A stretch of 62,412 nucleotides of DNA, filler included, from Kipferlia bialata (Eukaryota): assembly GCA_003568945.1 (NCBI GenBank). It is 2 parts of 2 records of this genome, joined end to end, with 100 filler letters (N's around TTAATTAATTAA, not from the genome) between each part and the next. Parts side by side here need not be neighbours in the genome. Positions count along the whole stretch, not along the records: positions 31,266 to 62,412 come from BDIP01000114.1; 1 more part is not named here. One strand, given 5' to 3'. Position 1 is the stretch's first letter, and each line of letters begins with the position of its first letter. The notes below the pieces were generated by a model. It saw nothing but the letters and a program-made list of their open reading frames with translations. It was not told the origin of the DNA and made no database searches. Positions 14,570 through 62,411 of the stretch are shown one piece after another. Both the position numbers and the translations under genes were made by a program.

Positions 14570-14570
14570 T

Positions 14571-14604
<34 letters not shown>

Positions 14605-32045: not shown

Positions 32046-32667
32046 ACTCTGAGTCAGAGTCTCTGACACAGTGTACATGACAGCCTGTCATTGACAGGAC
32101 ATCTCGGAAAGCAAAGAGTCGATTACTTCCAACAATTTCTCAGTGTAAGGAATGCCAAAGGTACGAGTGGTGTAGGTACACTAGTGAAAGGCGTTGTCAA
32201 AGCCAAAATGGTGTTGCCAATGAAGTGTCGATAGTATCGACTCGATACTCTATGCCAATTAGAAGCTCTCTCAAGGCTATTAGTAATAGTAGTATTGTCC
32301 CTACAATTACCTCATCGATCATGTACACATGTTCACAAACTGCAAGTCATTGTGCGCTTGACCGAAAGTACATGTACGAAAGAACTGTGGCTCAGACCAC
32401 CACAGGACCCTGATGACTCACGACATCCTACAGACCACAGTTACTGGGATTGACAGGTTCAAGACAATATATATGACAAGAACGGAAGACCTTAGGAATC
32501 TTGCTGGGACCAGAATCCAGTAGACACTATCTACCCTACTACGAAACTATGATAACCAAACCCAACTTAGCATTCCAATGTGACTATGATATTAGATTAC
32601 GATATTAGATCGTATGACGTCAGGTGATCACTCAAGTTATACGGGACCTCCACTGGAGGTCCTCCAG
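32046..32667. mobile_element. Four putative hairpin-type transposon excision footprints
   Basis: Exact 22-mers at 32046-32067, 32077-32098, 32227-32248 and 32646-32667. Confidence 0.6.
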
Positions 32668-33087
32668 TCATCTTGGAAGCTTAGTGGAGGCTGCTCAAAT
32701 ATCGTACATGAACAGTATTGTCACTATATACATTCTCTTTACAGAAGGGGCAAAGGTTGAACGTGCTAGTACCCCGGAAGCTTCTATAATAGACTATTAT
32801 TAATAGTCACTTGGGACGCTACACGGACACAACCTTCCTTGAGTTGAAGAACACACTCAGCTCTCACCATTGCTAATGGGAGGGGTACCAAGTCCTATTG
32901 AGTGTGGGAATACTCATAAGACTCCTTGCATAACGATGTTAGTGAGCATTGGTTGCTCTAGGTGAAGTTCGCCATGGAGTCGTATATCTCGTGACGAAAG
33001 ACTCGCCGAATCGACATCACAATATGAATCCATTTTTGACTTTGGGTTCTGTGTCGACAAGACCCTCATGTAGATGTGTTTCCCCTA

Positions 33088-35074
33088 TCAGTCCACAAGA
33101 GCAGTCACCAGGCCTTCTAGATGCCTGGCGTCTGTGCCGCAGCACCCACCTATAGGTGAGGGGTGTAATATGGAAGAATGGGTTGAGAGACACCCACCCA
33201 CATCAGACACAGACCATGACTTCATAACTACGTAGGCGAAGTATGACTCAGAATAGCCTCCATATAGGGTATTTGGAAAATAGTATTTTCATGTCACACA
33301 CCTAGTATGCGCACTGACGGGTGGGTGTCCCTGACAGCCACCATATCTGCTACCCACTGGGAGAGGGGCTCCTCCCTCGTGTCTAGGCAGGACTCCAGCA
33401 CAGCAGGGCTGAGACTACTGGCGTTGGCCATTATGCCAAGCAGTCTAGGGTGAGGTGGGGCGGGAGGGGAGGACGGGGGGGAAGAGTGATTGAATAGTTC
33501 AAGAACAGACACATCACACCTGGAGCAGTCCCCGTTGCCTGGCCTGACGGTGCATGGGTAGCAGCAGTTGACCTGGGGGGTGAGCAGTGAACTCAAGCCA
33601 CAGAGATAGACAATGCCAGTGCGTTACAAACAATACAACATCCCTATAGGCATCCAATTAACACGCTCCAGAACCCTCACCATATATCCCAGAGGGGGTG
33701 TCGATGCATACTCGTCGACCTCTCGGATGGCCTCAGAGAGAGGGGTGCCATCACGGAGATTCCTGAGAGGTTATATACTAAGAGGTTGGAGAGGAGAGGG
33801 TCTTAACATACTGTACTATGCGTCTATCTGACAGTTCATATACAGGGCCCGGACTGGACTGCGTTCTAGAGTGGGTAACCACTAACCCGTCACTCCCAAG
33901 GACGAATGAGATTACGTAGTCCACTTTGGCGTCAGCCAAGGCCTGAGTGTAAGTGGAGTGTGTACCATACCAGTACACATCTATACCCATATCACATCAC
34001 ACCATTAACCCGCACCTGTGCCATTCCCTTTGCCTCAGACAGACATGGGAGGGTCTGACCTATGATGCAGTCGACACCCCCTCTCACCAGCTCAGAGATC
34101 TGGGGTCAGCGGTCATGACTCATGAGGGTGTATCTGGGTTAAATATTCTACACGATACTAAAAACACAACCTGCCAGGCGTGAGCTTCTCTGGCCTCACT
34201 CTCAGTGAGGCCCTGTGAAGGAGTATAGCAGTCGTTCTTAGGTCCTATAAGGCCACCTATGCAGATATCGACCCCCCCCCCAATATCTTCTCTTGCCGTT
34301 AGAATCCTGAGTACAAGTGATATCATAAAGGTGGATACAAATGTACGTTGTCACCTAAGGCGCCGCATAAACATGGCTGCGTCATAGTTACAGTCCATGT
34401 ACTTTGTGGCATCACCGGCATCCATTGAGGCAGCTAGGAGACTGGGAATGTAAGATGGGAGGGAACAGTGAGGTGACAATAGATAGAACAGATAGAATAC
34501 AATAGATAGAAATAGAAGATGTCCAACAGTCGTGCTATATAAACTAAGAAGAAGCCGTACCGGTCTCTACTGGCCCGAAATGTGGGTGTAGACACTACGA
34601 GGGGTACCTGAAAGTAAAGAAAGGGGATGCACAATAGACAGAAGGAGAGTGTAGTAACATAGCCGCTGGTTCCTCACCTTAGCTCTTCGGGCAATGTCAA
34701 TGTACTCAGTGTATATGACCTGCAGTGCCCTGCGACCAGCGTCTGAGTAGATGGCACTGCGGATATGAGTATGTGTCGATACAGTAGTAAACAGTAGAGT
34801 CACGTACACACTTGGGTGACATTCTATGGGGAATTCGTCCACCAGCTAGATATACAAAGCGCCTACACGTAACCACTGCAGACGTACCCAGAGTTGAACA
34901 TGTGTCTGTCGAGGGTCACACCTGGAAAGGTCTTCAGCCTGGGTCAGCCTACAGTGGAGAGTACATGGCACACACAGGGAGAAACAGCACACAAATATCG
35001 GACATTTACCTCTCAGCAACACCTGCTTCAGCCAGCAGGAGGCCGGAATGGCTCTCTATCTCATCCAACAACAT
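33088..35074 (-). CDS. Homocysteine S-methyltransferase family protein, multi-exon
   Basis: MLLDEIESHSGLLLAEAGVAERL...STPTFRASRDR...GPKNDCY...GQTLPCLSEAKGMA...VNCCYP...ANASSLS...GGCCGTDARHL; the Zn-binding VNC and GGCCGT motifs are intact. Confidence 0.9.
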
Positions 35075-35426
35075 ACAAGCCTAGTATATTCAGAGGAACA
35101 GTAGAGACATTTATTATCATCAAAGTCTGATCAAACCACCAAACGCTCTGGGAAAAAGGGTCTATTACTAGTACTTTTGCCTCTGGTGCAAAAGCCGCAA
35201 AGTGACCTCTCTCTCTCGTATCAGTTGTGGCTGCCTCATGCTCTCTATGGCACGCTCTCTGGATGGGGATGTCATCCTGGCTTTCAGAGGTGGAACAAGG
35301 GTGTGCCCAATCAAGGGCTGAGCCGCTGAAGGCTGATATTGACACAGCCTTGTGTCAGGGCAGAAAAGGTTAGAGGTTCCTAGAGGTTCCGTTCTTCTCA
35401 GCCATTAAGTATTGACTCCAGGACAG

Positions 35427-37290
35427 ATGCTCAAGAGTATTGAGTTCTACGAAACGCAGGGGACAGATAAGTGGCCATTCAGGTCGCACCGTATGTCACA
35501 GTACCCAGTCACGTAAGTGTTCTATCACGATAGATTCAAGCATCGCCCGACTACACTACTGTCCAATTCGTTATCGCTATGCTTACTTAAAGCTAACCCT
35601 AGGTCTGTTGTGAGTGGCGACCACGTCATTGTGGCTGTGTCCGGGGGAGGCATCGGCATAGCCTATGACAAGGACTCCCTCCAGTTCCTGTGTTACGTCA
35701 ACCCATTCACCTCCTCCTATATCAAGACAGCATTCTTCTGCGAGAGGGGGGGAGGGTACTTCGTATTCTCTTGCGTGGCTCTGCCAGCGAAAGACTATGT
35801 AGGTGTGGATTGAGTAACACCATCCTGTACTCGTTTGACTTGATACCCATACCCTTCATCCATCCTGACTCCCAGTGCTATACAAGGTGCCTGAGTCCAG
35901 CATAGTGGGAGGGACCCCCATCCCCAAGCGCCTGTACCCAAAGAGGATGAACTTCCCCGGGTGTGTCACTCTTCTCTCATCAATGCACCATCATATTCTG
36001 CATCCGACCTCCAGGTACATCGAGTGGGACTTCAGCACCGGCCTGTATGCCACCTTTGTGCCCAGGGGCACGTGGTCCAAGGACCAGGTGCGGTACACCC
36101 CATTACTCGGTACATGCCTCGGGGTATGATGTGACGCTCTGACCCCAGATCAAGGCCCTGGGCCCCAACAAGGCCATAGAAGGGACATACTCTGTGTGGG
36201 ACAGCCTCAACAACTCCAACCAGGCGCTCTTTAGGTTCGACAGCATGGAGGGCAATGTGTGCGACATCAGGTGTGTGTGTGTGTGTCTGTGTGTCATCTC
36301 TGCGTCTCTATGGTGATATGGCCCTAACCCCAGGCTGTCTGACGGGTATCTGCTCCTGGTCTTTGGGGCCACCCCTGTCGGCTCCGTCACCGTATCCACC
36401 ATCCCCCTCCACTCCTTCTGCTGCCAGGCCCCAGGGTATGACCTGCCAGCCACCCATGACAATGTCAAGCTGCTCAGACACCACAGGCTGGCCTTCAAGG
36501 TGGACGGGCAGGTGGGTGGTGGCAGATATACGGAGTGGTGTCATGGGTACCAGTGTAGTGTACATTATACCCCCCCCCCCCTGCCGACCCTTACCCCAGG
36601 CATCGCTGGAGCATGTCGAGATATGCATGGGACGGCTGTTCCTGCGGCAGAAGCGGGGTCCCCTGTGTGTGAGTAGGGTGAGAGGGGGCAAGGTGGAGCT
36701 GGCCAGGACAGGAGCAGTCATAGAGGGGGAGATGAGGTGGGGTCTGGGTGTCTGGTCCTAGCTGTGTTCTATATACTCTTGGCAACCCTGACCCCCAGTG
36801 TGGAGAAGAAGAACTGGTTCGGTGTCATTGAGGTGCACTCCGACCTAGGCACTGTCCTATTGGATCAGGGGGGGCACCCGCTGCACCCTGCCCCCCTACA
36901 GATACGGCCTGTGAGGGGAAGAGCCACAGGGACCATAGTCAGGTGTGGGAGACTATCTGTTCAGCATGACTCAGTCTATATGTGTAGGGTATGTTTTGTA
37001 TACCCACCTCTCTGACCCCAGGTGCCCTGGAACCAGACATGCTGTGTGCATGGTGCCCCTAGATCCCATGAGGCCTGAGGGCGAGGCCCACCTGGTCATC
37101 ATGGACAAGGTGGGGGTGGTTTGGATGTATGGGTACTTGTTGGTGTGATGGCCCTCACTCCCAGACCGGCACGGTGCTCTCCTCCCTGATGCGAGTGGAC
37201 CCCTACACCATATCCTGCATAGCATCCATCCCAGCTGGCATCCTAGTGTGCAGGGTCAGTGGGGCAATGCAGCTGGTGGGGCTGTCCTAG
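35427..37290 (+). CDS. WD40-like beta-propeller protein resembling an uncharacterised plant/protist family
   Basis: FLCYVNP..YIKTAFF, FPGYIEWD, VEICMGRLFLRQ echo the remembered motifs ICFLN..IRSLFY, WPGFVEFD, IEQFNEKLLVKQ; about 10 exons. Confidence 0.6.
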
Positions 37291-37660
37291 GCAGTCCAGG
37301 GCCATTTCTCTATGTGTTTCTGTTCGCCTGTGTTTGTGTATTCGTTTGGTTCTATGTTATCCTTCACTATTGTATAAATGATGTGTCAGGATATACAGCC
37401 TAAGGTCATTATTTGGACAGTGTTTCAAACTGGGTAGACGGAGTCAAAAACACCATTGAGGGTCTATGTTAACATACATTCTCAGCATTCTCAGCATTCG
37501 ACAGACTCCTGCACTCTCTTTACACTCTGTTCGACCAAGTGTAGTATAGACCAAGTTCCACCGGACATATTAGCACTACACACGTGACTAGACACTGCAG
37601 TTGCCCCCGCCCCCCCCCACTCTGTTAGAGAGACCATCCCGTAGCCTGGGGTGCTGAGTG

Positions 37661-40213
37661 ATGGATGCCGATGTCATACACACAGGCCTGCTCCGCCCCC
37701 ACTGTCTTTGTCACGGCAGAAAGCCCACGGGTGTGCACCACAGAGTGTACTGCACTGATGGTGGCAGTGTGAGCAGTTACAAGGTGGGACACGGTCTTCA
37801 GTAGAACACAGAATTCTCTCCCAATCTCACATTACAGAAGGATAGCCGGAAGCCATTCTACTGTGCTGTCCCTCGGGGAAAGGGCGTTGTCAGTACACTT
37901 GCATGCAACAGTGAGGGAACCCTGTATGCTGGTGTTGGGTCTGATGTCTACGCTGTGTCCAGAGACGGTCTGTCTGCCCAGCCCGTCATGTCCTGTGACA
38001 GTGAGGTGCGGCAGATGCTTGGTTGCTATAGTATGTGCAGTTGCTGGGTGGATGGTCGGAGAGGGATCGATGCTTTGTCCCTTAATCACTCATATTTCAT
38101 GATTCATATAGAGACCAGTGTACATAAACACATACGTATATGAATATTCCCACCCTGACCCCAGGTCCAGCGTGTCAGGTGCATGGGGTCCCGTATTGTG
38201 GCACTCTGCTCTGCCTCTGTCAATGTTTGTGTGGACGGGTGCACCCTGTCGCTCCCCCTCCCTGCCCCTGCCAGCGACTGGTGCCTCCTCCCCCCAGGCA
38301 CTCTCCTGAGCCAAGGGGCATCGGGCGCCGAGGCCGCAGGGGCAGGCCCAGACACAGTGGCTGTGGCGTGTGGGGATGCCTCTGTGCGACTGTTTGTGGT
38401 GCCAGAGGCCAAGGGGGCTGGTCTGTCCTTCTCGGCCTCCATCCCCCTATCCTGCACCTGCATCACTCCCCTGCCGGCAGAGCAGCCGGTACGGCAGTAG
38501 CAGTCTATTCTACTTGAGATATTTCAAGACCATACCCCCCCTCCCCCTTCCAACATTCCCCTATATATAGTAGTCTATTACACTTCTATTTTTGCATTCC
38601 CCCCTGTATCCATGACCCCAGGGTATGCTGTTCAGCGACGGGTGCAGCGTGAGTGTCATTGTGAGTGGCCGCACCCACCAGGTGTGCACCTCCCCCCGAC
38701 CCATATCCAGACTGGCAGTGCAGGACGTGACGGGGGACGGGGCGCTGGAGCTGGTGCTGGTCAGTGGCGAGAAGCTGACGGTGAACAGGTACGCCCAGTG
38801 GAGGCTGGAGTTGGTGGTGCCCGTTGTACCTTTCCTTCCACTTCTCTAAATATTCATGTGGTATACCTGACTCTATGACTGGCTGGACAACCCTGTATAT
38901 ATATTACTATATTCCCTGTATATTACTATACTATCGAATGTCAACCCTCGTACTTATCTCTAGGATCCTGCCTGGGTTCAGCGTGTTGCCTGTGCGTGTG
39001 CCTGACCTGCAGGGGGTGGTGGATGTGATGGGGTGCGAGGACACACTCTACGTCGCAGTCGGCACAGGTGAGTCTTACCCTCTACTTTCCCGTCTTCCTG
39101 TTATGACTGGCTGAATAGATCTACCCCATGCATATCAATACTTATCTTACTTTACCCCTCTCCCCCACCCCAGGGTCCGTGTCCATTGTGTCTCTTGGCC
39201 AGGGCTCCAAGTCGGGGGAGGGCATCGTGAGGAAGGGCGGCGAGGCCAAGCGTCTGCAGGCGCTTCAGGAGCGTATCTCTCAGCTGGAGGTCAAGCTGAG
39301 TGCCGCCGACCAGGCCAGAGAGAGGGAGAGAGAGGCAGAGGGGCAGTACCACCAGGAGCCGGCCTCGCCCTCCTCCGCTGCCCCCTATCCCTCTCTGTCG
39401 GTGAGGGTGACCCCATCTCTGCGGTCTCTCTCTCTCTCTGTCACCGTCTCCCTCTCTGTCCCCTTCAAGTCCCTCTCTGTGTGTCTACCTGAGACTGTGG
39501 TGTGCACGTCTGTCGAGCCCGAGGCTGTTGTGTGTGCCGTGACCAATGGATGCGCCCTGTCCTTTGCCTCTAGTGTCACCAGTGCCATCCTGACCCTCAG
39601 ACTCCCTCAAGCAGGGGCAGGGGGGGACGGCAGAGTGCTCGTGTCGGCCCTGACCCAGTCCCCTGTCTCCCCCTGCGTCGTGGGGGTGCTCCCCATACCC
39701 ATACTCCCCTTCCACGCCCAGTCCCGCCCCATTGAGAAGCGCCCCGTTGGCATGAGGGTCCGGGGTGTGCTAAGGCAGGGGGTGTCGTCACTGGCCCCCT
39801 CCCTCACTCCCCACACCACCCTCCCCCTCACCTTACTAGGCCCAGCTGACATAGTCTGCATCATGGCCGCAGATGGGTCCGAGGGGGTGACGTGTGCGGC
39901 AGGGGTGGACGTGGTGGTCGAGGCAACCAGCGTGGCCAGTGGCACCCTCTGTGCAGAGGCCCTCCTGACCGATGCCCACCCCACCGAGACCCTTGCCCCA
40001 GGCCTGCTGGCCAGGGCCTCTGCCTTTGCCCGACAGCTCAGGTACCAGCTGGCGGGGGGCACTGCCGACTATGGCCTGGCCACCCTCAGGAGGGATGTGG
40101 TGCTGCTGGGGGGGGAGGCCTCGGATATCGACGGGGCAGTCTCTCTGTTGAAGGAGGGTCAGGACGCCGCCCTGCCCCTCCTGGTCTCTCTGTTCAAGAG
40201 ATTGGCATCATAG
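37661..40213 (+). CDS. BBS7: Divergent BBSome subunit BBS7-like protein
   Basis: Colinear with BBS7: VAVACGDASVRL, QDVTGDGALELVLV (cf. DIVGDGVKDLLV), coiled coil KRLQALQERISQLEVKL, GAE-like region ending ILPFHAQ. Confidence 0.65.
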
Positions 40214-40573
40214 AGCTTATCAAATGGGGTATTGACTAAGTGTTCAGGAAGGGTTATATATACTTTTACACACTGGTATTCTCGGTAACTTGGATTCTAT
40301 AGCACACTCCTAAATTCCCCCCGACGTAGTATCTGTAAGGCTATCAATACAATCTGTATTCTGTGGGCCATTGCACGTTACTAGTATACCTCTTGATTCA
40401 CCGGTTTCATATGCAGAAATCTTATAGAAGCTATCTTACTCGGTATGAACATGAAACACGGTCCGACATTATAGACCCTAATTATTGACCCAAAAATGAG
40501 GGTCCAGCGTTATATCAAAACCAAAATCTGCAGTTCTCTCTCACCAAAAGAGCCATAGAGCTCCCAACCCAAC

Positions 40574-43365
40574 ATGGCTAAGAAGTCAAAGGATTCACCA
40601 GCTCCTGATTATAGGTATATAGCTTCTTCAGAGTAAGGATATAGATGACATGACACTGTGAGTATATTTTTAGAGATTCATGTCTTCTTTTAGATTTCTG
40701 CTGTCTCTATGTTTCTTTACATATATCTAGGAGATTAAAACAGCTAGTACTGCTTGTGATAGTGTTTCCTCTATAGTTTTAGCACTCAACTAGTAGGATA
40801 TGCGGGTCTTCCATGTATCCAAATATACCATTCTATTTTTGTACTTGTACTCTTGCCTTCAGATACTCTGAAGATGCCATAAAGGAAGTGCTTGTGACCT
40901 CTATATCAGTGATGAGCTTACTGTCTTATTCTCAGGCACTTTGACGGTCCCGTCAAGAAGCGCAGATGCCGCGACTGCTGGTTCCTGCCATTCTTCGTTG
41001 CCTTCTGGCTCTTCATTGGATACCTGATCTATCTGAAGTATGACGCATCCCTCGGGCTCTCCGCCGATCAGTTCATCGAGGTGCAGCGTGCCTACCTCCC
41101 CATCGACAAGATGGGCAGGTTCTGTGGCCGTGGGGATGACTGGAACACCGCCAAGCACCTCACCCCTAACTCCCAAGGTATATATACATTGTCATGAGTG
41201 TAGGGGTAATGGTAATATATATATATATATAATTATTATGTATTATACATGTGTGTGTATATATCATGAACTGTATCTCACTCCAGGCATCATCAACGAC
41301 CTAGCCGTCACCATGTTCACTACTGCCGTGGGTACCACCAAGGCCAACTACCTCCAGTACTTCATGAGGCTGCCAGATGCTGCATTCGAGGATGTTTCCT
41401 ACACGAACGCCAGCTACCTGACTTCCGATGACCCCATTCTGTCCTATGACCACACTAATCGCGACTACCTGTGGTACTCTCTGTCTCCCTCCCTGGACGA
41501 CATCACCTCTGTGCTCGACAACTGTATCTGTGTGGAGGACTGTACCGCAATCTATGGCCTGGTCGACATCGACGAGGTGTTTGGAGATGACGGAGAGGTG
41601 GACGACGACAGCGTTGTGTACCCCTATGTCTGCTCCAGCGATCTGATGGACCTTGCCACCAGCTACCAGACTGACAACCCCAGCATCGTGGTCGACGCCA
41701 ACGGCTACTACGACATCACGGACTACACCCTTCTCAAGAGCAGGATGTCCACCGCCATGAAGTCCCGTCACTCCGAGATCACCGACGCCGAGGTCGACGG
41801 TCTCTTCGAGCAGGAGTGCTTCACCGTCTGGATCGACACTGCCTCCGAGAGCATCTCCAAGCGTTGCCTCCCCCCCTCCTCCGCCCTGTCCTCTGCCAGT
41901 GAGTACGCCTCCGACGTCGTGACCTCCTTCCTCGAGGGCATTGTGGGCCAGTCCGTGGGCACCATGGCCATCTCCTCTGTCATGGATGGCTGGCAGTTCA
42001 TGCTCGGCGGCGTCGTTGTGTCCGTCCTCCTCGGATTCCTCTGGCTCCTCCTCCTCAGGCTCTTCTCCGGCCTCATTGTGTGGATCACCATCATCGGCCT
42101 CTTCGGCTGCCTCTGTGCCGCCACCTACTACACAGGATACAACGTACGTGATACTGATACAACGTACGGGAGAGGCTCTGTCTGCTGTCTATGTTTATTG
42201 TTTCTCTTTTCAGCCCCCCCACCCCCCTCACCCCCAGGGATACACTGAGAAGACATACTGTGAGGACAACACATGCACCGACTCTCGTTCCGAGTCTGCC
42301 AACCGTATGTTCTACGTCGGATGTGGTCTTGCCGCCATCACCATCATCTACCTCCTCCTCGTGTTCTGCATGTGCTCCAGGATCAACCTCGCCATCGCCA
42401 TCCTCAAGGTGTCCTCCACCGCCATCCGCAACATGTTCCGCCTTGTGTTCCTGCCCATCGGCTTTGTCTTCTGGGGTCTGGTCCTTGGATGCATCGCCAT
42501 GTTCGCTGCTGTCGTTGCCTACACAGGCGCTGAGTTCCACTGTGCCGAGGGCCACCGTAGCTGGGAGCCCACCACCGTTGAGTACGTGTATGCCGCCGTC
42601 GGCCTCCTTGGCTTCTGGTGGGGCCTCTACTTTGTGCTGGGCCTGTGCCAGACCACCATTGCCATGTGTGTCGCCACCTGGTACTTCACCAGGGACAGGA
42701 ACCACCTTCCCAAGCGCCTCGTGACCGCCTCTCTCTTCAAGGTGCTTCTGTTCCACTCCATGTCCGTTGCCCTTGGCTCCTTCTTCATCGCCCTGCTCAC
42801 CTGGGTCCGCATCATGTTCCAGTTCGTCAAGAACCAGGTCAAGAACAAGCACGCCGACAAGGGCTTTGTCAAGTACCTCCTGGCCTGTGTCGACTGCTGC
42901 CTCTGGTGCTTCGAGAAGATCCTCAAGTACATCAACAAGAACGTGTACATCGCCATCTCCATCCAGGGCAAGTCCTACTGCAAGTCTGCCTCCGAGGCTA
43001 TCCCCCTCCTGCTCGAGAACGGGGCCAGGATGGTGGCTCTCAACGTCATCGGGGACTCCCTGCTCTTTGCCGGCAAGATGTTCATCTCCCTCGCCTCTGG
43101 CATTGTGGTGGGTCTGGCCATCTACCAGTGGGGTGACGACGGTATCTCCGCATACTGGCTGCTTCCCTCCATCATCGTGACCCTCTTTGCCTTTGTGTTT
43201 GCCTCTCTGCTCATGTCTGTGGCCGAGCTCGTCATCGACTCCATCTTCTACTCATTCCTCATCGACGACAAGCTCCACGCCGGAAGCCCCTCCTCCCACT
43301 ACTTTGCCCCCAGGGAGCTGCACTCCTTCATCAAGGAGAGTGACCCCGAGAGCGGATGCTGCTAA
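40574..43365 (+). CDS. Choline transporter-like protein (CTL/SLC44), 4 exons
   Basis: YRHFDGPVKKRRCRD, RINLAIAILK, FHSMSVALGSF, CCLWCFEKILKYINKNVYI, GKSYCKSA; multiple TM helices. Confidence 0.95.
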
Positions 43366-43803
43366 GGGACCAGATGGTCATCAGTTAAAATAGAAAACAT
43401 TTGTACTGTCGTGTTCGTTAGTCAGTGAGCAAGAGTGTACTAAGGGCTAGTGTTTGGTGACGCGATATGGTATGTATATACATATATATATGATATTTAG
43501 GATCGAGTCTAGATAACTCCCAACACCTCTATGTGAAACTGAGTGGTTCTCTCTATTGGGTGTCCTATCGCTGTCCAGATTAATACCAGATGTATAGCGC
43601 AAGCGACCTTTGTTACAAATATGCTCTTGCTTTCGACTGGAAGAGACTTCTGAAAGGAAAGAGACCTCTTAAAACGCAAGAGGTGGCAGGAGGATAGGGT
43701 GATAGGAGGACTCGGCGTTCTCAGAGTCAAAGGCCCGGCAGACATAATCATAATCAGTGTGTCAGTGTGTCAGGGACAATGGAGAGTGGATACATGGATG
43801 TGC

Positions 43804-44214
43804 CTAGTAGCCAAGCCTCTCCTTCACGGCGTCTGCAAAGAGAGGCGCCCTGATGGGCTGGTCTGGGTTGACCAGGGGGGACTTCAACACATAGTCTGCG
43901 TAGAGCTGGTAGACATCACCCAGCATGGCCTGCAGGTCAGCCTTGTGGTCGAGACTGGCCAGCAGCAGCATCTTGAGGCCGGTGGGGGTCTCGAGACAGG
44001 CCGCCTTCGTCTTGGCTGTGCTGAACTCCCTGATGCCACTGGTGGTCTCCCTGCCTCTGGGGGCCACCTCGTTAGACAGGGCAAACAGGCCGTGGAAGGT
44101 GGACAGCAATACTAGGTAGTCATTGGCACTGATCCCAGTCTCACGGGGGACAAACTCCTGACTGTACACAAGACCTCCAGCCTTGGAAATGATAAAGAGA
44201 GCGTGTACACCCAT
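43804..44214 (-). CDS. TRAPPC4: TRAPP subunit 4 (Trs23/synbindin), intronless
   Basis: IISKAGGLVY, NDYLVLLSTFHGL, ETPTGLK, YQLYADYVLKSP. Confidence 0.93.
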   Translation of the reverse strand: MGVHALFIISKAGGLVYSQEFVPRETGISANDYLVLLSTFHGLFALSNEVAPRGRETTSGIREFSTAKTKAACLETPTGLKMLLLASLDHKADLQAMLGDVYQLYADYVLKSPLVNPDQPIRAPLFADAVKERLGY

Positions 44215-44255
44215 ATGCAGACTACTCTGGTGTCGGTTAGAGAGTATATGTACAG

Positions 44256-44277
44256 GGACCAGTCTGGTCCGACCAGA
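44256..44277. mobile_element. Putative excision footprint within a divergent promoter
   Basis: g-gaccag-t-ctggtc-c-gaccag-a. Confidence 0.6.
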
Positions 44278-44368
44278 CTCAATTCAAAAATGTTACTTCA
44301 ACCCTTCGACTCGGGCTGATGGCTGTACAGTAGCAGTCTCTTCACCCAACCCTGTTGGACACTACGGT

Positions 44369-46643: not shown

Positions 46644-46657
46644 CTGGGTCAGACACA

Positions 46658-46699
<42 letters not shown>

Positions 46700-47491: not shown

Positions 47492-47630
47492 CTTTCTTTT
47501 GGGGTTCGACTGCTCTGAAATGATCTATGAGGGTGAGCAACTACTCAAACTGCCTAGACAGCGAGGCAGTATGGCAATTCGAAGTTAGCCAGTCCGATTT
47601 TTTGGTCGAGAAGGGTTTAGGAACTCGAGC

Positions 47631-47699
47631 TTGAGTCAACTTGACTCAGTCAAGCAGGCTGCTTGAAGCAGCTTGACAATTGAGTCAAGCAGCTTGACA
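47631..47699. mobile_element. Two overlapping putative footprints next to an unmodified copy of the site
   Basis: 47633-47654 and 47651-47672; pristine copy at 47680-47699. Confidence 0.65.
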
Positions 47700-49636: not shown

Positions 49637-52600
49637 CTGTATCAATGGAGGTACCGATGAGGAGAGTGTATGTGTCAATATATATTTTAGAGTGTCTGTC
49701 TATTTATACATCCCTCCCCTTACCCCCAGCTGTATCTCTGGAGGTATCGATGAGGAGAGTGTCTGTATCAGTGTGGGACAGCAGTGCCTGGCAGACTGTC
49801 AGCTGGAGGAGACAGGTGGGTATATGTATATGTACTATGTATATGTCGATATGTACATAGTATTCTCTATATTTCCTCCTATGTGCCAGACTGTCAGCTG
49901 GGGGAGACAGGTGGGTATACATATATACATATATACAATATCCCTGTGTTCGCTCCTGTTTGACATTTGTATATACTCACTCCCAGCCTGTGCCAGGGAC
50001 TGTCTCATCTCTCTGCCTGAGGTGGACTGGTGGCCTATCCCTAACTTCGGTGCTCCCCCTGCAAGGTAGGGACACTCACACACTCTCTCATACATCTACA
50101 CAAGCACATGACCCTTACTTTGTTCATATATAAATTATGTGGCCTATCCCCAACTTCGGTGCACCCCCTGCTAGGTACAGAGCATTTCTCTCTCTCTCTG
50201 TGTCCCCCCCCCTCATTCCTTCCTGTTTCTTGCTCCCTTCTCTTTATCTGGCGCATGAACTACTCCATTTTCTCTCCTCTCCATCTCTATCTCTATCAGG
50301 ATTAAGAAATCATTATCGAAGCTGTATATCTATATATACCCGTACACTGTCTGACCCCAGGCGCATGAACAGTCTCACTTCTGACATATATACCTGCCTG
50401 CGTCAAAATATATACATACGCAAAATGGTTAACCCAATATAGAATAGTATATGTATAATTATCCCGTGTCTCACCACCAGGCGCATGAACAGTCTGCTCC
50501 TCAAGGACACTTCATCCACAGACAGAGAGAGGTATGCATGTGGTTATATATATATGCGCATGTGTATATACATACAATCATATGTATGTATTATTCCATT
50601 AAGTTATTGTTGTTGGCGATAACTGACACATCATCCAGAGACAAGGAGAGGCATGAGAACACAACAGAGAGTATATATAGAAAATATAGTATATATAGTA
50701 TATCTATACCTATCCACCACCCACCCCTCTCTCTCAGTTCATATTGTGACAGAGAGAGAGAATTGAGCGTATATGTGATAACATACTGCCACCCCCCCTA
50801 TATCCATTGTGACCGTGCGTCACTATCCTCTCTCCCTCCCTGTCCCACATGCATGAGACTTCTTCTCCTTGGTGGCACCCACACCATCTCCTCCTACTAC
50901 TAACCTCTCTCTCTCTCCTTACACCCTCATTCCAGACTACTACTATTTAGTGGCACTGACACCATCTCGTACTACTGCAATTCTCTCTCTCTCCCCCTCT
51001 GTGTGTGTGTATATATACCCTCATATCAGGTTACTGCTGTTTGGTGGCACTGACACCCTCTCGTACTACAGTGATGTCTGGTACTACAACACACACTCCA
51101 ACGGGGAGTCTGACTCCACCAACTATACATGGTACAAGGCAGCGGTCAAGGGTCAGTACTACTCCTATATATATATATATATGTACCAGGTATATACTAT
51201 AGAATATATTAACTGTATACACATATATTTAATGGGGAGTCTGACTCCACCAACTATACATGATACAAGGCGGCAGTCAAGGGTTAGTACTAGTCCTATA
51301 TATACAAATATGCAAATACTATAGAATACAATCACTGTATACACATATACTCAATGGGGAGTCTGACTCCACCAACTACACGTGGTACAAGGCGGCGGTC
51401 AAGGGTATGGGTGTACTTCATATATACTACTTTTTTTTTATTTTTTATAGTATATTCACAATATATATATTGTATACACATGGTTCCAAGTAGTCAAAGG
51501 GATGTGCTACTAATACATACACTACTTGTGTCCCATCCCTCACCCCAGGTGACAGTCCCCCCCCTCGTTCTGAGGCCATTGGGTTCCTCAGTGGTACCAA
51601 CCTGTACATAGGGTTCGGAAGGAAGGTATCAGACAGTCATATTCACTATGGTCTCCTTTAGATCAGATATTGTACTGATTGCACAATTTCACTAGGCCTA
51701 ATAGTGTTAGGATAAGTCCTCCTAACCCGCAGGACAACACCTTCTACAGTGACCTGTGGATGTTGAACACTCACCTTGAGTATATTTGTATATTATATAT
51801 ATGTGTGTGATACTAATATGATGATTTTTTTATAGTGCGTCTCCTTACCCCAGGACGACACCTTCTACAGTGACGTGTGGGTGTTATCAGTATCAGTATC
51901 CACTAACCTACCAACTACATTACTTGCTGATACCAAGGACAACACCTTCTACAGTGATATGTGGGAGTTGATCACACTATACCCATACGGAACTTCCAGT
52001 GCTAATAGTTTGTCTTTCTCTTTAAAGGATGAATCATATTAGCGTTAAGACTCTGCTTAACCCCCAGGACAACACCTTTTACAGTGATGTGTGGGTGTTG
52101 AACACTGACCCAGAGTATATATTTGTATTATATATATGTGTGTGATGCTGATATGTATATTGTATAGTCTGGCATCTAACTCCTAGGACAACACCTTCTA
52201 CAGCGATGTGTGGGTGTTGAACACTGACCCAGAGGACATGGTGTGGAGGGAGGTGGACACACCACTCGGGGCAAGTAAGTACACATACACACATATATAT
52301 ATGAATATATATATATATATATAAATATAAGTATATATTCAATTTGGGGACATGGTGTGGAGGGAGGTGGATACACCACTGGGGGCAAGTGCGTATATGC
52401 ATATGTGTATATGAATATATGTATATATACAATACTTAATCCTATATATATTCATCCAGAGGACATTGTGTGTTGGAGGACACAATTCTGGGGGCAAGTA
52501 TGTATATGAACAAAGACGTCAATAACGATGTACTATACATTTATGACGCATATTCTCTTTCACTGTGGTTCACTTCACCTAATTTCAGGATCAGGTGCCT

Positions 52601-55600
52601 TTAGCGCCCCTCTAGATGTCACTACTTGTCACGAGACAGGGTGCAGCACAGATTGTAACACCAGTTGTGCCACAACGTGTGGGGCAGATGATCCGGACTG
52701 TTCCACTTCATGCCAGGCAGAGTGTTTACTGACATGCCCTATGGTAGAGTGTGACGCAGACACCCCTACTGGCCCCACTGTGGAGACATGTCTGCTGGTG
52801 TTTGGGGGGGCAGTCGGGAACAGGCTGTTGAGAGGTATATCTCAATTCTCTATGCAACCCGGTAGTTCTAAACTTCATATTGAATATATATCTTCCCATT
52901 TACCCCCAGAGACGTGGCTCTTCACCCCCTCCACCGAGACCTTCACCTCTGTCCCCCACCTGGACCTAGCATCAACGCCACCCGCCAGTGCTAAGGGATG
53001 TGCCGTATCAGCAGGTGTGTACCACACATATATATACATGATAATTCAAGTATGAGTGTAAATATGTGTTATATTGACCAATGTACGACTATTTCACCTG
53101 TCTATAAGTATAGGTACAATTATACTTGGTGCATATAGTGTATATAGAGCATATATTGCATTATCTTCCTCTTAGAGTTTAAAGAGTCCACAATTTTATC
53201 TATATTGGTATTGTTCTATATCTACAATATATCTCTACATACAATCTATCTCTACATGCGGGTATATGTATTAATCGTTTCACTATATGACCCTATCCCA
53301 CCCCAGGTGACACTGTGTACCTGCATGGTGGCATGGCAGAGTATGACTACGAGGTGGGTCATCTAGAATATATATATTTACTACGTATAGAAACATCTAC
53401 TCTTATGTAATCGTAGTGATGAAATCCAGTCAGACTCTTCACTCTCTCCATATACTGAATATATATGACAGCAACGCTTCCACATTTCATCTGTATTTAC
53501 CAGTGCCTTCCTCTCACCCCTTAGACTGGTCTGCGCCAGGGCAGCCCTGCTACCTACGCGTTCTCAGCAGACACAATGGTGAGTAGAGATCATCTCTTTC
53601 ATGTGAATATGTGCATGCCATCAATTGGTATGTGAAAGGAGTTTTTACATAGTATATGAATACTCTTCAGTCACTCTCTGTTCTCACCCTAGGCTTGGTC
53701 CATTGTCCACCAGCCAGACTCTGCCACTGCCACCATGATACAGAACATGCCATGCTACCTGGACTCAACGCAGTCCATACTGTATTCAGGTAATTGCAGT
53801 ATGTATAGAATATGCAATATACATACATTGTATATATAGTAATGATACAGAACATGCCATGCTACCTGGACTCAACAGGGACCATACTGTACTCAGGTAT
53901 ATGGCACACATACCCATCATTATGCTTATATTCTAGGATACACTGGCAGAAGTACAAAGTAGATTCTCTCAAATTACCCCCAATTTACGGTTGAATACAC
54001 TTTCATATAGGTGACATTTCCTAACCACAGTGTATGGCATGGATGTGACCACTGGGGACATTGAGACCAGGCTTCGGTCTCTACCCCTTTGTGCATGCAC
54101 TGCATCCCCTGCATCTGATGAGTGTGAGTGGTCGGTAGAGTACACATCCAGGGACCTAGCTAGGTAATGGTGTAATAATGGATGTCAGATCAATCACTAT
54201 ATCACATATGAGAGTGGTATCAGACCTTACCTGTGCAAGTGGGTGGGGACTATAGACACTAGTAGAGATGCTGATGTTATTACTATCCGTTCGCTCTTAC
54301 CCCAGACACTCCCACACCTAGATGATGGTGATAACTATACATATATATTATATGCATTTTTATTATATACATATATATTATATATACTATATACATATCA
54401 GACATTGAGTCTAACCCCAGACACTCCCACACTGCAGCCCAGTCATTCAGCAAGGTGGCCTTCATGATCGGAGGTATAGAGTATATATTCAGTATACAAC
54501 GATATATTCATGTCATATGAATTCATTTATTTATATCATAAGAATTCATTAATTATATGGCCTTGTATCGTTGTATCTCCTTGTGATATGACTCACCCAG
54601 GCTGGCGCAACGAGGTCCGCAACGACGTCTGCTCAGTCTATCCCGATGACAATGGGTACTCAGCAAACACGTATGTGCTCAACCCTGTGTACGATGGAGG
54701 GCCGCCCACAGGTGTTACATTTCTCTCTGTGTCTATTGGTCTCTATGTTTGTATAAAGGTGTATACATTTAACACCTCAGGCCTTGAGTCCACTGCCTAT
54801 GCCACCAGTGGTGACAGTGTCTACGCATATGGCGGAAGACTTGGGGTACGTCCTCTGTTTAACCTCACATCTATATTTATACATTATATATTATATATTT
54901 CACTATCAGTTGTATGATTATGCCTCTCACAGTCCATATTTATATTGTTTCCAATGGTATGATGATATTCACAAGTAGGACGGCTCAGTGCTCAACACCC
55001 TGATTGCCTTCAACACCACTGCCACGTGCATAGACATGTGCCACGAGGAGTGGCAGGTACTGGATAGTCTTTACGCGATTATGTATCCTACACGACTAAC
55101 AATGCTCACAATTAGGAGTCTGGGATGGAGGCCTGTCATGATGAGTGCGACATAGACAAGTACCTCTGTGACAGCTGTGAGAGTGCCCATGACACATGCC
55201 TAGCATCTGCTGTCACTGAGGCAGAGACATCTGACTGTGACACTGCATACACAGAGTGCACGTCTGGTCTGGACGCCGTGGAGGAGCCATGCTACCAAGC
55301 ATACAAGACGTGTGGGGTGGAGGTTGATGAGTACAAGGAGCAGTGCACGGCTAGCCAGGAGGAGTGTGTAGCCCAGGCCCCCCCTGCCCAGTGTGCTGAT
55401 ACATACTACGCATGCTATGACCTAGCGGAGACTGACGCAGATGTTTCTGTCTGTTACCAGGACTATCTTGGCTGCTTCTACACCACAGCCGAGGTCATAT
55501 GCGACACCGCACTCGCTGAGTGTGAGGCAGCAGAGGATGGAACCGACTGCGAGGCTGCATTCAACCAGTGCTACCAACAGACAGATACTGGTGCGTGCTA

Positions 55601-58600
55601 CTCCGCATACTGGGACTGTGCTAATGGTGCCACTGACTGTGTGGCTGGATACTGGGAGTGCGTGGCCGTACCCCCTGACTGTACTGCTCTCTACACGTCG
55701 TGTAACATTCCGTGTACTGAGGATGATGGACCGTGTGAGGCAACCTGTGCCGCTAGTGGTGCACCCACCCCTAACTACTGGGTCAGACCAGAGATGGGGG
55801 GGAGCGTCCCAGATGCCAGGTACTACAAACTGTTCATTCTTACTGCATGACTTCCACTCTTACTTCTTCTAACGACACTCTCTTCTTATCACTCAGATAC
55901 GACGCCATGATGGTCTCCTTCGGTCCTCTCCTCATGGTGTATGGGGGCAGGGACAGTGACGGTGCCTACCTGGACGATGAGTTCACATACCACACCGACA
56001 TCAAGGAGATCAACGAGCAGGTACATATACTCCCTAATCATAATTTATATATATACATATATAGTATATACAACAATACATACCGTAGCATTAATGCCAC
56101 ACTGACATCAAGGAGATCAATGAGCAGGTATATATATTATTCTTCACGACTCTGTCAGATATCTCAGCGATAAGAAACATGCACCGCCTCCTTCTAATAC
56201 CAGATCAGCACTGGCAAGAAGCCCTCTGCCCGCAGTGCCTCAGCTGTCACAGCTGTTGGAGAGACACTCTATCTCTTTGGGGGCATGGATGGAGAGGGGG
56301 TGCTGGGGGACATGTACTCGTTCAGCTACTTCGACAAGGTGGGTACATCATTAACATTGGTACATATGGAGAGGTATCTTCTTTATCCCTCTGTGTCTCT
56401 CCCCCCTTCCCCTATCTCAACGTAGGAGTGGACTGCACTTACTCGTGACCGGGCCTCTCTCAAGCCTGCTCTGTCCCATGCATCGCTGTTATTCACACCC
56501 ACAGAGACAGAGGACACACGAGAAGGTGAGTATTATATGTCCTTCTCAATACATATTTACTATGTGATATATCAATATGATATATCAATATCTTCATACC
56601 CACAGAGACAGAGGAGACAAGGGAGGGTGAGTTTGAATTGTCCTTCTCCATACATTCTTGCTATGTAGTATATCCATACCTTCATACCCACAGTGACAGA
56701 GGAGACAAGGGAGGGTGGGTACAGATTCTTCCGCTCCATCACATATTCACTTTATGCTACTCCAATACCGTACTGACGACTTGTGCTTACTAGTAGGTAC
56801 ATACACGCTCTCCGACGGGACCCTCTATCTGCAGGGTGGGGTGTCTACTGCTATGATGTGTGTCAGCACTCTCTATCGCGTAGATATCGACACCTCCCTA
56901 GGGACTGTGTCCTATTCAGAGGTCACCCAGCTCAACATCGATGGAGACGGTCCTTCCACAATCAACACTGCATTCTCCAATGCGCCTCTGTCTGTGCTGG
57001 GAAAGAGGTTAGACACTTTGTATTGTGGAATATATTGGATGCTGGAATGAATCCTTCTTCTCCCATACTATAGTATTACATAGTATATATATATGTCACT
57101 GTGTCACTGTCATCCTATCATCTCTCCTACTCTCTCATTCTTATTACAGGGCTCTAGCAACAGGTGGCAGGAGTAACAGGATGACATCGGAGGACGGAGT
57201 CATTAGGTATGATTGCGATGATCAATTGATATCATGAATATGGATTTCTCGTTGAGTTGTGGAAGTACCCTCTGTATAGATGTACTCACCCCTACAAGCA
57301 TAACAGTCTGCTGACGCCCAGGGTGTTTGACTTCTCAGATGAGTCACCAGACTCTGTGAGGGTCTATGAGATCACAGCTTCGACAGGAGAGACCATGGAG
57401 AGAAACAGAATGGCTACTATTCAGGTAAAGATCTACTTGCATCAGATTAACGATATCTCATGCCGAGTGTTGTTTCTTCCACTCTTTGTGCAGACCTTCC
57501 ATTGACCATACATATATGATGTGGCACTAGATAGTGGCACTAGACCTCAACCTCAGAGTGTTGTTCAGAACTACTTCACCACCATTGGAGGCAGTCTGGT
57601 GGAGTCTAATACGGCACCTGAGGGACAGGCCGTGGCAGAGGTATAGTGTAGCATGCATACTATGTCATATGAGACATATCATATATCCCATATATCACCC
57701 TGTCAACTATATACTTACATATCGTACCATACTACTACTCATACATACCATTAATTACTATAACTATTTATAAACGGACAGGTATATATACCTATATGTT
57801 GGCTCGTTTGTTGCCCGTTTCTCACATCATGCCTGGTACACTCTGCTGGGCGATGCATGTGACCCAAGTGTGGAGGACTATGACCCAACTTGCTGGCCTT
57901 GTGCTAGGTATGCGTGGAGTAAGCCCCCCCCCCCAACCTACACGTGTCTCTCCTACTAATATGTGTTTGGATGACTGTTCTGTGTCTGAGTCACCTGCTT
58001 ACTTAATATCCTCACCACCAGGGGCACTGTGTATCAGGCCTCCACTGCCACCTGTGAGTCATGTCCCAAGGGGCACTTTTCGGCACATGATGGTATGGAT
58101 ATATATACATATATGTACATACAATACTTATATATATGTATATATATACTGATACCCAGGCATGGCTGAGTGCACCCCCTGTCCGGCTGGGTTCTACAAC
58201 GGAGTGCCCCAGGGGAACAGCAGGTAAATTTGTATATTGGATATATTCTTGATTATACATATATAATGTGTGTGTACTCTGGTGAATATTCTATGCGAAC
58301 AATCCTTCACCCCAGGCTGTTCTGCCTGGCCTGTCCCAGTGGCACATACAACAGTACCCCAGGCCAGTCAGAGTGTCTGCCCTGTCCAGGTAGTGTTAGG
58401 TTATATATACACATATATACATATACATTAATAGATATGTATCAATATACATATACCTATTAGCTAATATACATATATATGTAAAATACACTGTCTGCCA
58501 TGCCCAGGTAATAACACCATTATTGTTCACATGTACCCAGTGGTATACAATACAAGAGTTAACATACACCCAAACACAACCCAAGTGCGTCACTCAATAA

Positions 58601-61376
58601 TGTCTCACTCACAGATGGCAAGAGCTGCCCCGTGGCGTGTGTCGATCCCGTTGACAGTACGGTCGATGGGACAGATGTGGTGGTCAACACTCCCCAGGAG
58701 CTGGAGGTAGTGTAAATACTTAACCCTAGCCAACAATTATTTCCACAGCCATTATCTGTACTTGTACTCCAATGTTTACATATCTCTACATATGCACTCA
58801 CCCTCCAGGTCCCCACTGAGAGGGCCAAGCAGCTTCAGCTGATCCTGTACATAGTGCTAGGCCTTGTCAGTGGCAGTGTGCTGTTGATAGTGGTGGCTGG
58901 CAAGAGAAGCATCATTAAGGTGGGTAGCACGGGTATACTCAATATGAATACTATGTTAACCAGAGTCTGTTTGGTATTCTAGAATAGATATAATGTGTGG
59001 GTCAGTTAATCCTTCCTCACCCCCAGGCCCTGGACCTCTACTCTGTGCCCTATGTCTTCACAATGCCTGCTGCCCTGGGGTAAGATACAAATATACATAC
59101 AGACATATGTACATACCTCCTCTGTCTGAGGATTTGGTGTATAAGTATACATATTCGACTTACCACTAGGAGTAAGAACACTTGGATTGGCGGCATCTTC
59201 AGTGGTCTCTTCATATGTGCCTTTGTGGTCATGGGAGGTGGGGCAAGTATAGTTGCACTACTTACTCTATTGGATTGTTAGTCTAACCGTTCTCACTGCT
59301 AGGTGGCCTCATCATCCCGTTCCTGAAGACCAATCTGGCCGAGGACAGGAGCCTTGTGCCCTTGTGTCTGGCAGACACCACACTCACAGCCACACTCGAC
59401 ATAGACATCAGCCTGACAGGTATGTATGATGTAGTAGTATATAAATATACAATTGAGTCAAAGTCTCACTGCCAGGTGGGTTTGAGACCTGTACCCTTGG
59501 TTGTCTATATACACTTATGTATAAATATATGATGCGACTACTATGTATGAATCTTTACAGTATAGCATTAACTCAGGTGGCTTTGAGACCTGTACCCTTG
59601 GGGGTGTGGCCGAGGGTGAGTGTGCACCTGAGGTCACAGTCACACTGCCATCGGGGGTCACAGCCAGTCAGGTACACATATACATACATCACTTCCTGTC
59701 ACTGTATGTGTTCTTCATATGACTATTAACAGATCATGTGCTACTCTTCCTCGTCTCTGATTATCAGGTGGAGCAGAAGTGCAGCCAGCCAGTCGGAGAC
59801 ACAACCACCTGTAGGGTACGGGTGCTACATGTAATAGTTACTGGTATCTAAACCACACCAAGAGTATTGTGTACTGTAATTCAATCTACAGTCCATCTTC
59901 GTCTCCACTCTTTCGCTACCATGTTGTTGATATTTATAGACCTTTACTGCGCTACTAACCCTCCAGGTCCAGCTGTCTGTGAGTGAGGCAGAGCTGCAGA
60001 GCAGACTGTCAGAGTACGGAGTCACACTGCTGGGCTCTGGCGAGTACTTTGCTAGTATTGTAGGTACCTACTCATCTGGTGTTTCCAATGCGTGGACCTT
60101 CCAATGTGTGTACATATAGGAAACATGTTAGTGTAGTACCCTCTGACCCCTAGACTGGAACGTAACCTCTGCTGCGTCCAACCCCGGTCAGTACTCCAGC
60201 ATAGCAGGACAGCTACTACCCGATGCCCAGATGACATTCAGGGGGACAGCTGAGCCAACGGAGGTGATTACTTTATACCATAGTTTGTATTACTACAGCA
60301 CTGCCCCCTCGTCTCTCAGTACTCATTCCTCAGATTGGTGTCTTCAGCACTGAGTCTCTGTACCATGTGGAGTATGAGGCAGAGTCATCGGGTGTAGACA
60401 GTGATGGACTGTACAACCCAGACCTGAAGAACCCCAGTACAGGCAGGATATTTGAGGTCAGATACTTAATTGTCATCATATATACACCCCAATTACATAT
60501 ATGGGCATGTGGATATTACTTCTGTAGAGGTATACATACATACACTACTATACGTGAGCTTCCTACTCACCCCAGTTCATTGGCTATGAGCGTGGCAGCA
60601 TGGTCAACTCGCAGAACTTCTGGGACCAGAACGGAGTGAGGTACGGTTGACAATATATCTACTGTGGATCATAGTACACTGATAGATATATATATATTCA
60701 CTTCCTGTTCTGTCAAGGACTTACCCTCAGTCTCACCATTGCCTTTGAGAGGTCTGAGAACATCCTGTCCTGGAAGCAGTACAAGGTATATGACCCCAAG
60801 AGACTGCTATTTGTGGGAATAGGCGCAGATATATCTCTATCATCATGTTTGTGTCAATTCAAATCCGTATGCTCACTATAGGTACAAGACTTGGCCGCTT
60901 TCCTCGCTGCCCTACTAGGATCCCTCACCGGTCTGCAAGGTACTTCTATACCCCTGTACTTGAGCACTTCAGTAATAATGAACCCGACAGTCTTGATATA
61001 CATAGGTGTTAGACATGGATTAGTGGTTCAGACTGCAGTCTAGTACTATTATTAGTGTATCGAAATATTTCTAATTATTGACTTTCTAACTCCAGGCACC
61101 TTTGGCGGTGTGGCTGGGGCCATCCGGTCCGTCTGGTGCATGATCAAGGTACTACTATACATACGCGCAAATACTCATGTATTAGGGGAGTACACCATAC
61201 CTTCTGGTGCATGGTCCACGTACATGTATGTGATATATATACATTACTCCTCTCACTCCCAGGACAAGTACGGCAAGGACGTGTTCACCAAGAAGGTTGA
61301 CAAGATGCATGATAAGAAGAGGGGCAAGAGAGCAGCCACCGAACTGAGACAGACACGCGAGGTGGCATTCATATGA
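49637..61376 (+). CDS. Large multi-exon membrane protein: kelch repeats, Cys-rich inserts, GCC2/GCC3-like repeats, three TM segments; 5' end missing
   Basis: LLLFGG..YSDVW, VYAYGGR, LMVYGGRD, LYLFGG kelch blades; CPSGTYNSTPGQSECLPCP; hydrophobic segments near 58840, 59190-59320 and 60890-61145. Confidence 0.8.
51731..52500 (+). repeat. Five copies of acceptor plus exon 5' end (DNTFYSD.W) and three copies of exon 3' end plus donor
   Basis: ag|gacaacaccttctacag at 51733, 51854, 51938, 52068, 52187; ...ggggcaa|gt at ~52274, ~52388, ~52497. Confidence 0.9.
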
Positions 61377-61701
61377 CTCAGAGACAGAGAGGTGTAAGCA
61401 TAACAGTATGTGACGTATAAGCTATTCAATAGATTCTATTGAATATCAGAGTAGATATGTTTGTTTCACTACGGATCAGACTCTTGTGCCAATTAAAGAG
61501 ACAGAAATAGATGGATGAGAATACTTAGTAATTGAATTATTTACATACTCATTGGCGATTAATACGAGAGAAGGTGACATAGATCTAATAATAATACTGG
61601 CCTACTCTCGCCAATTGGGTACCGGAGTACTGCAAGGCAGTGAAAGACAAGAATTTCTCCCCTAGTAATAGACTAGATGTCACCAACTCTCTCTACTCAT
61701 A

Positions 61702-62411
61702 GCCTATGAGTCATAGGTCCTATGGGTCATGCATTAATATTCTTCAGTATACAGTATGACTCACACTGTCTGCCAGACAGTGTCTGGACTCTAAACCCAA
61801 TAGTTTGACCGCCTCATGATGAGGCTCATCACATTTGTAAAGTCTATTGTATGTGAAGATAGTTGATAATACCCACTTGCAAATTGAAAGCCTCAGACTG
61901 AGGCCCTCAGTCCAACATATGGGCTTGCAGTGTGACGAATCCTCCTACATCTCCCCACTTGCACAGTCTGACAAAGACACAGTACTTCACTGAACAAATG
62001 AGTGATACCAATGATGTGCTAGGTCCTAGCCTAGGATTCCATCTTGTAGCGGATGCTTGCTACACTGAAGAAGGTCTCCCCCCATGTGTTGTTGTTGACC
62101 ACAACACTGTAATGGTAATGACAGAGAATAGCAGGTAAGACCTGTTGTTCGATGATACTTGTGACCTGAGATTAGCGCTCTGTTCTTACACATATCTTCT
62201 GTGACCATCTTGGTGCCACCAAGATGGTCGAACCCATGACCTCCCCTTGGTATGTGGAAAAAGAACGGCTGCGTTTACACTAACAACGGTTGAAACCAGC
62301 GGTGAAACTTACATTACCAGACGTCATTCCCAATATACCCATTGGATCCCATTTTCTTTCTCGGCAACGTCCCAATCTAAGTGGATTGGGAAGGTTGGGA
62401 AGTCTTCCCAA
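61702..62411. mobile_element. Cluster of exact and degenerate putative footprints
   Basis: Exact at 61766-61787 and 61890-61911; variants near 61702, 61811, 62018, 62203-62229 and 62395-62411. Confidence 0.6.

Follow-up and report, generated by a model that had tools for sequence, protein, structure and literature searches.

Fixed-length inverted triplications in intergenic DNA of Kipferlia bialata as probable hAT-type excision footprints

Introduction

How short words of intergenic DNA come to be expanded, repeatedly and always in the same way, into a forward, a mirrored and again a forward copy of themselves is the question raised by a 62,412-nucleotide (nt) stretch of the genome of Kipferlia bialata (GenBank assembly GCA_003568945.1), referred to below as the window. 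It joins two parts of two records with 100 filler letters between them, positions 31,266 to 62,412 being derived from BDIP01000114.1. An earlier note, made from the sequence alone, had listed nine exact 22-bp inverted triplications and had read them as hairpin excision footprints of hAT or RAG type, left by unusually stereotyped excision. The analysis described here supports, with a probability of roughly four in five, a reading of these scars as hAT-type cut-and-paste excision footprints that were probably healed through annealing, classical end joining being reportedly absent from the host. Five observed features carry this reading, namely the shape of the scars, their fixed length, their direction as insertions, their intergenic clustering and their target bias.

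The hAT transposases form hairpins on the flanking DNA, excise with blunt ends or a 1-nt 5' overhang and create 8-bp target duplications (PMC8151067). Footprints of Ac/Ds have the complement of the element-adjacent base as their centre and often make use of microhomology (PMC5873905), and a Ds insertion with a duplication of 7 bp has been described (PMC1978519). With regard to the host, metamonads have been reported to lack Ku70-Ku80, DNA-PKcs and accessory proteins, and for K. bialata the entries for Ku70, Lig4, Artemis, CtIP and PARP are empty, with entries present for PolQ, Mre11, SNM1/PSO2, ERCC1 and five Rad52 (PMC8516963 and its Supplementary Data 2). The assembly behind those absences is fragmented, at 84% BUSCO (PMC8516963 Table 1).

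The scar rule and its controls

A direct scan of the window returned 12 exact scars in which an 8-nt word T is represented as T[1-7], the reverse complement of T and T[2-8], giving 22 nt and a gain of 14 over T. Two further exact scars, at 61812 and 62018, are built in the same manner from a 7-nt word (6-7-6, 12-base insertions), bringing the total to 14 exact expansions of one local 8-nt or 7-nt word in forward-mirrored-forward order. All nine motifs listed previously were found in place and obey this rule, and exact 8-nt cases at 26129, 32786 and 61696 are added to them. Expressed as a 6-nt core with 1-nt spacers, each spacer is the complement of the opposite outer base in 12 of 12 triplications, as the earlier note had described.

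When the word length was varied from 5 to 11, the exact form occurred 5, 1, 2, 12, 0, 0 and 0 times, respectively, against means of 1.34, 0.12, 0.007, 0.00, 0, 0 and 0 in 300 block-wise third-order Markov sequences. The sharp peak predicted for an 8-nt site is therefore present (12 against a mean of 0.00), accompanied by a slight but genuine excess at 7; lengths 9-11 are empty. Counts at lengths 5 and 6 fall inside the control maximum and were judged to be chance or by-products. Nine trimming geometries, with 0-2 bases lost per side, were tried at lengths 7, 8 and 9, and matches were obtained only where one base is lost on each side (the length-5 count of the no-loss form was taken with AT repeats unfiltered). 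RAG and Transib make 5-bp duplications and hairpins from which no base is lost. They share flank hairpins with the proposed mechanism, but the no-loss geometry has 0 matches at word lengths 7-9 and the peak here lies at 8, so the "RAG-type" half of the original label is not supported.

Near-matches at length 8, with TA-repeat windows filtered out, comprise two with one mismatch (control mean 0.02) and four with two mismatches (mean 0.42). Exact scars outnumber one-mismatch scars by 12 to 2, or by 12 to 3 when the nested case described below is included (P 0.006 and 0.018, respectively, against equal classes), which suggests that the activity is recent or that old scars are lost quickly. A TA-rich near-match at 54372 and an AT-rich two-mismatch case at 18083 were left out of the scar count. 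In all three non-TA one-mismatch scars (31892, 61420 and 47628) the mismatch falls within the outermost two positions; imperfect duplications may be tolerated at the tail ends.

Genomic distribution and target bias

Intergenic DNA was read by eye as 17 intervals with approximate borders, amounting to 7216 nt or 11.6% of the window; one border was placed ~45 nt too early, with no scar changing class as a result. All 14 exact scars lie between genes and none lies in an exon, which bears out the expectation of exonic depletion. They occupy 5 of the 17 intervals and so form five clusters (permutation mean 8.7, P 0.006), at a density of ~2 per kb of intergenic DNA, and contribute 192 nt to its ~7.2 kb (2.7%). 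By appearance, the only intronic sequences of this kind are the two-mismatch candidates at 33269 and 18083 and the TA-rich one at 54372.

The 12 target sites, when symmetrised, show a bias of the form nYnnnnRn. Pyrimidines fill position 2 in 21 of 24 cases (P 1.4e-4), and T occurs at position 1 in only 1 of 24 (P 0.005, ten positions examined). Such a bias is compatible with the Hermes target TnnnnA, and the intergenic preference and local clustering match the behaviour of Ac/Ds, which favours intergenic DNA and nearby reinsertion (PMC7599172). At 44215-44289, two divergent start codons are just 75 nt apart, and 22 of these nt are a scar.

Direction of the change and nested scars

Collapse of the two overlapping scars at 47633 and 47651 restores an older scar at 47628, with one mismatch, together with an intact 20-nt tandem duplication. 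The copy of this duplication at 47680-47699 holds both words once, unscarred, so at this locus the unexpanded word came first and the scar arose by insertion. The earlier note had proposed to look for empty alleles in reads or related strains; this internal copy is one within the window itself, and contigs over 31300-48200 yielded none. The two younger words are mirror-symmetric on the older scar, in this one case. Re-targeting of prior palindromes was considered as a general rule and set aside, being clear only in the 47628 nest and weak, by eye, at 32786; a pre-existing palindrome is missing from the majority of collapsed sites.

A variant is found at 62209, where both of two mismatches agree with the reverse complement of the left flank and the right part follows that reverse complement for 6 nt. 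This single case is compatible with opening of the hairpin at a distance of more than 8 nt from the tip, or with later correction of a quasi-palindrome.

Proposed mechanism

The element would first enter open intergenic DNA and duplicate the word T. On excision, following hAT chemistry, each flank would lose one base on one strand and be closed into a hairpin whose centre is the complement of the element-adjacent base, such that the left hairpin would read T[1-7] followed by the reverse complement of T, and the right one the reverse complement of T[2-8] followed by T. A host nuclease, perhaps Pso2/SNM1 or Mre11, would then open each hairpin at least 8 bases from the tip, and opening of the far strand would give 3' tails that begin with the reverse complement of T and with T, respectively. 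Because both flanks end in T, these tails would be complementary over exactly the length of T, and annealing (by Rad52 or Pol theta, presumably), flap trimming and ligation would produce T[1..n-1], the reverse complement of T and T[2..n]. This last step follows by geometry, with the enzymes being candidates. Any opening distance beyond 8 nt would lead to the same scar, hence the uniformity expected where no Ku or Lig4 joins the ends earlier; a host that is likely to be without classical end joining would explain why the scars are so alike.

The hAT hairpin and annealing scheme of the earlier note is upheld in part, in its geometry, which fits exactly, and in the 8-nt peak, and is left without a transposase or element in the window. 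We infer hAT membership from shape, length and target bias rather than from an element. In their palindromic P-nucleotides, which have the complement of the element-adjacent base in the middle, in microhomology joining and in 8-bp, occasionally 7-bp, targets, the scars resemble the footprints of Ac/Ds in plants, Saccharomyces cerevisiae and Candida albicans (PMC5873905, PMC1978519). With Hermes and Tol2 they share the proposed flank hairpin, 1-nt 5' overhang and 8-bp duplication, a regulatory or intergenic bias and a T..A-like target bias (PMC8151067, PMC10368747, PMC7599172), but show Y at position 2 and R at position 7 rather than strict T and A, in a window in which neither transposase nor element was found.

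If only those hairpin-model footprints are considered in which both cores survive, the fully annealed form is present 12 times, against six distinct short candidates near chance and one by-product of the nest. In intergenic DNA, short Ac-like footprints with a gap of 0 give 10 rows against 1.6 expected, all traceable to 4 distinct tandem duplications, those with a gap of 1 number 2 (0.79 expected) and the single one with a gap of 4 lies inside the nested scars; none occurs there at gaps 2, 3, 5-7 or 9-16. Excision can be called stereotyped, as the earlier note did, within this class of footprints but not beyond it, since precise or deleting repairs are invisible in one sequence. Separately, a perfect 8-nt tandem duplication stands in intergenic DNA at 15143-15158 (0.045 expected in shuffles) and is possibly a footprint retaining both target copies, or a product of slippage.

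Weighing the evidence

Several observations weigh against the hAT reading. As stated in the earlier note, no transposase is visible: transposase families were found in 0 of 249 Pfam-scanned frames of at least 78 amino acids (30 + 150 + 69, partly redundant, and for the most part outside 1-14600). The 8-bp element that had been predicted has no convincing representative in the window, where terminal inverted repeats flanked by 7-10-bp target-site duplications were sought; all 60 rows returned are AT-repeat, exon-repeat or whole-gene-spanning and none was accepted, and the output of repeat finding consists mostly of microsatellites and cysteine-rich exon repeats. Filled or empty alleles are absent from contigs over 31300-48200, which derive from one sample and hide variants, and a search of metagenomes with the TRAPP subunit gave no related locus. 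Introns are abundant yet almost scar-free. Three events in one 22-nt site, two of them mirror-placed, exceed what plain random insertion would lead one to expect. Finally, the Ac/Ds footprints described in the literature vary in form and are for the most part short, with 28 types among 128 Candida clones, unlike the one full-length annealed form that dominates here (PMC5873905, PMC1978519).

At the contig end, 62297-62412, ~115 nt hold five copies of one hexamer, counting either orientation, out of 23 in the window as a whole. The 8 nt that precede this stretch agree with the target bias of the scars, and it opens with an 11-nt motif that is found again at 47816, where a scar cluster is likewise close by. 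As other 100-nt windows hold as many repeated hexamers, it is a weak candidate for a transposon end.

The same hairpin-and-anneal scar could be made by a Mutator-like element (MULE) transposase in place of a hAT one, which we consider improbable. Muta1 also gives flank hairpins, with 8- or 9-bp duplications, but in yeast more than 90% of its excisions are precise, and its hairpin measured 43+43 nt with, as far as the text shows, no base lost (PMC5499845). Duplications of the MULE class span 8-10 bp, yet 0 scars of 9 or 10 nt were found even when two mismatches were allowed, and 7-nt ones are present.

Less probable still is an origin by replication template switching or flap fold-back, of the kind that makes small inverted triplications in FEN1 mutants, with no transposon involved. 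This process yields DUP-inverted-DUP structures (PMC13334657) in the same forward-inverted-forward order, and a structure-driven event would be in keeping with the variant at 62209 and with the second use of a palindrome at 47628. The published FEN1/rad27 triplications are, however, 10-20 times larger and variable, with broad sizes (medians 148/160/148 bp), ~30-bp spacers, 6-bp junction homologies and a location at nucleosome midpoints (PMC13334657), whereas the scars are fixed in length, have a one-base turn and have lost exactly one base at both ends. The scarcity of prior palindromes among the collapsed sites also speaks against it.

A similarly small probability is assigned to a route in which no element was ever resident, and in which a domesticated or orphan hAT-like nuclease (as with Kat1 of Kluyveromyces), or an aborted integration, would make a break with an 8-nt stagger, followed by fill-in of all but one base at the ends, capping by hairpins, hairpin opening and annealing. 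On paper the geometry is the same, an element or transposon remnant is found at 0 of the 14 scars, the old scar at 47628 was re-cut in mirror placement, and Kat1 does make hairpin-capped breaks without transposing in vivo (PMC4763223). Against this, the capping step would have to be one not yet known, Kat1 requires terminal inverted repeat sequence and cuts one locus (PMC4763223), and the absence of an element from 62 kb is weak evidence.

The presence of the motifs in sequencing data, on which the earlier note had made its claim depend, was examined over 31300-48200, a region contained in two public runs of one sample (X1 and X2); 6 exact scars lie outside it. DNA contigs of X1 match this region, with 8 of the 14 exact scars, showing no other letter and no indel at a word depth of ~480-540. 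A contig of X2, a run that we guess to be RNA and whose contigs skip GT..AG introns, covers 43546-44410 with such introns skipped, runs across the 44215-44289 gap and includes the 44256 scar unchanged. As X1 is possibly the window's own source and contigs hide minor alleles, the comparison speaks to presence only. A library or assembly artefact, which the single sample and the possible identity of X1 with the source would permit, can be given a negligible probability in view of contigs agreeing at ~500-fold word depth, the recovery of the 44256 scar in a spliced contig from the second library, the existence of older mismatched and nested scars, and the sparing of exons.

Features of the window

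Coordinates of the scars and associated features, in positions of the whole window.
Feature	Position	Remark
Exact 7-8-7 scar	26129..26150	between two divergent genes
7-8-7 scar, one mismatch	31892..31913	30 nt upstream of minus-strand start codon
Exact 7-8-7 scar	32046..32067	
Exact 7-8-7 scar	32077..32098	
Exact 7-8-7 scar	32227..32248	
Exact 7-8-7 scar	32646..32667	
Exact 7-8-7 scar	32786..32807	
Possible decayed scar, two mismatches	33269..33290	apparently intronic; intron read by eye
Exact 7-8-7 scar	44256..44277	in 75-nt gap between TRAPP/Sybindin gene (minus) and next gene (plus)
Older scar, one mismatch	47628..47677	seen only once its two nested scars are collapsed
Exact 7-8-7 scar	47633..47654	nested in older scar
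Exact 7-8-7 scar	47651..47672	nested in older scar; 4-nt overlap with 47633 scar
Copy 2 of 20-nt tandem duplication	47680..47699	both 8-nt words once, unscarred (internal empty allele)
7-8-7 scar, one mismatch	61420..61441	right palindrome reaches 11 nt
Exact 7-8-7 scar	61696..61717	
Exact 7-8-7 scar	61766..61787	
Exact 6-7-6 scar	61812..61830	7-nt word
Exact 7-8-7 scar	61890..61911	
Exact 6-7-6 scar	62018..62036	7-nt word
Variant scar	62203..62230	canonical-length part 62209-62230; 13-nt palindrome arm

The window is intron-rich and has a G+C content of 50%, both in agreement with the species description of K. bialata (PMC5874029). Its genes include KTI12, PX, RPN11, a choline transporter, Sybindin/TRAPP, a methyltransferase, V-ATPase A and Kelch/Cys-rich genes. 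Compared with 50%-cluster representatives, the choline transporter is 68% identical to a K. bialata protein and then 39% and 36% identical to proteins of Dysnectes brevis, with names looked up for the best 8 of 150 matches and for 2 further proteins. Positions 1-14500 are taken up by a very large minus-strand gene with tandem Cys-rich (GCC/ephrin-receptor-like) repeats, in which a 1.41-kb unit is present in three copies of ~75-81% identity. The large Kelch/Cys-rich gene at 49400-61376 has several short exons tandemly duplicated along with the adjacent intron ends, for example near 51100, 51230 and 51350. The minus-strand V-ATPase A gene ends, at 49337-49392, at a poly-G run joined directly to poly-C, after which an unrelated plus-strand gene follows; an assembly misjoin is possible at this point. 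Gaps at 31166-31265 and 14616-14812 are bordered by long G/C homopolymers, and the N run of the former encloses a 12-nt palindromic AT spacer, likely an assembler mark.

Implications

No literature on such scars or on Kipferlia transposases was found, in a search with thin coverage of subscription journals; the main text of PMC6635534 names neither Kipferlia nor Perkinsus. The type of footprint is already known; what appears to be new, as far as the accessible literature shows, is its fixed and dense form in a natural genome, and its occurrence in a fornicate for which loss of classical end joining has been published points to a cause that can be tested. As a rule, excision footprints come to light in assays alone, where they are heterogeneous. 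Each scar, on the other hand, encodes its own ancestral word and can be read from a single genome without a reference allele, making the pattern a cheap genome-wide test across eukaryotes with and without Ku.

A general rule may tentatively be proposed, though it is somewhat more apt to fail than to hold: that an 8-bp hairpin transposase in a eukaryote without Ku and Lig4 would heal its excision sites almost only through annealing of the target duplication, each leaving a +14 scar, with old scars re-targeted in a fixed register, ~3% of intergenic DNA made up of scars and the genome keeping a countable and datable ledger of thousands of jumps. Were this so, the scars would record the target preference of an element that is possibly gone. 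For K. bialata, the distance from some scars to a start codon is only tens of bases, and promoters may have been remodelled as a result. If the hAT reading is correct, the scars would document directly where and with what target bias DNA transposons have been active in a free-living anaerobic fornicate, hot spots included, and would offer a natural read-out of how hairpin-capped breaks are repaired without classical end joining, a question left open by the work that described its loss (PMC8516963).

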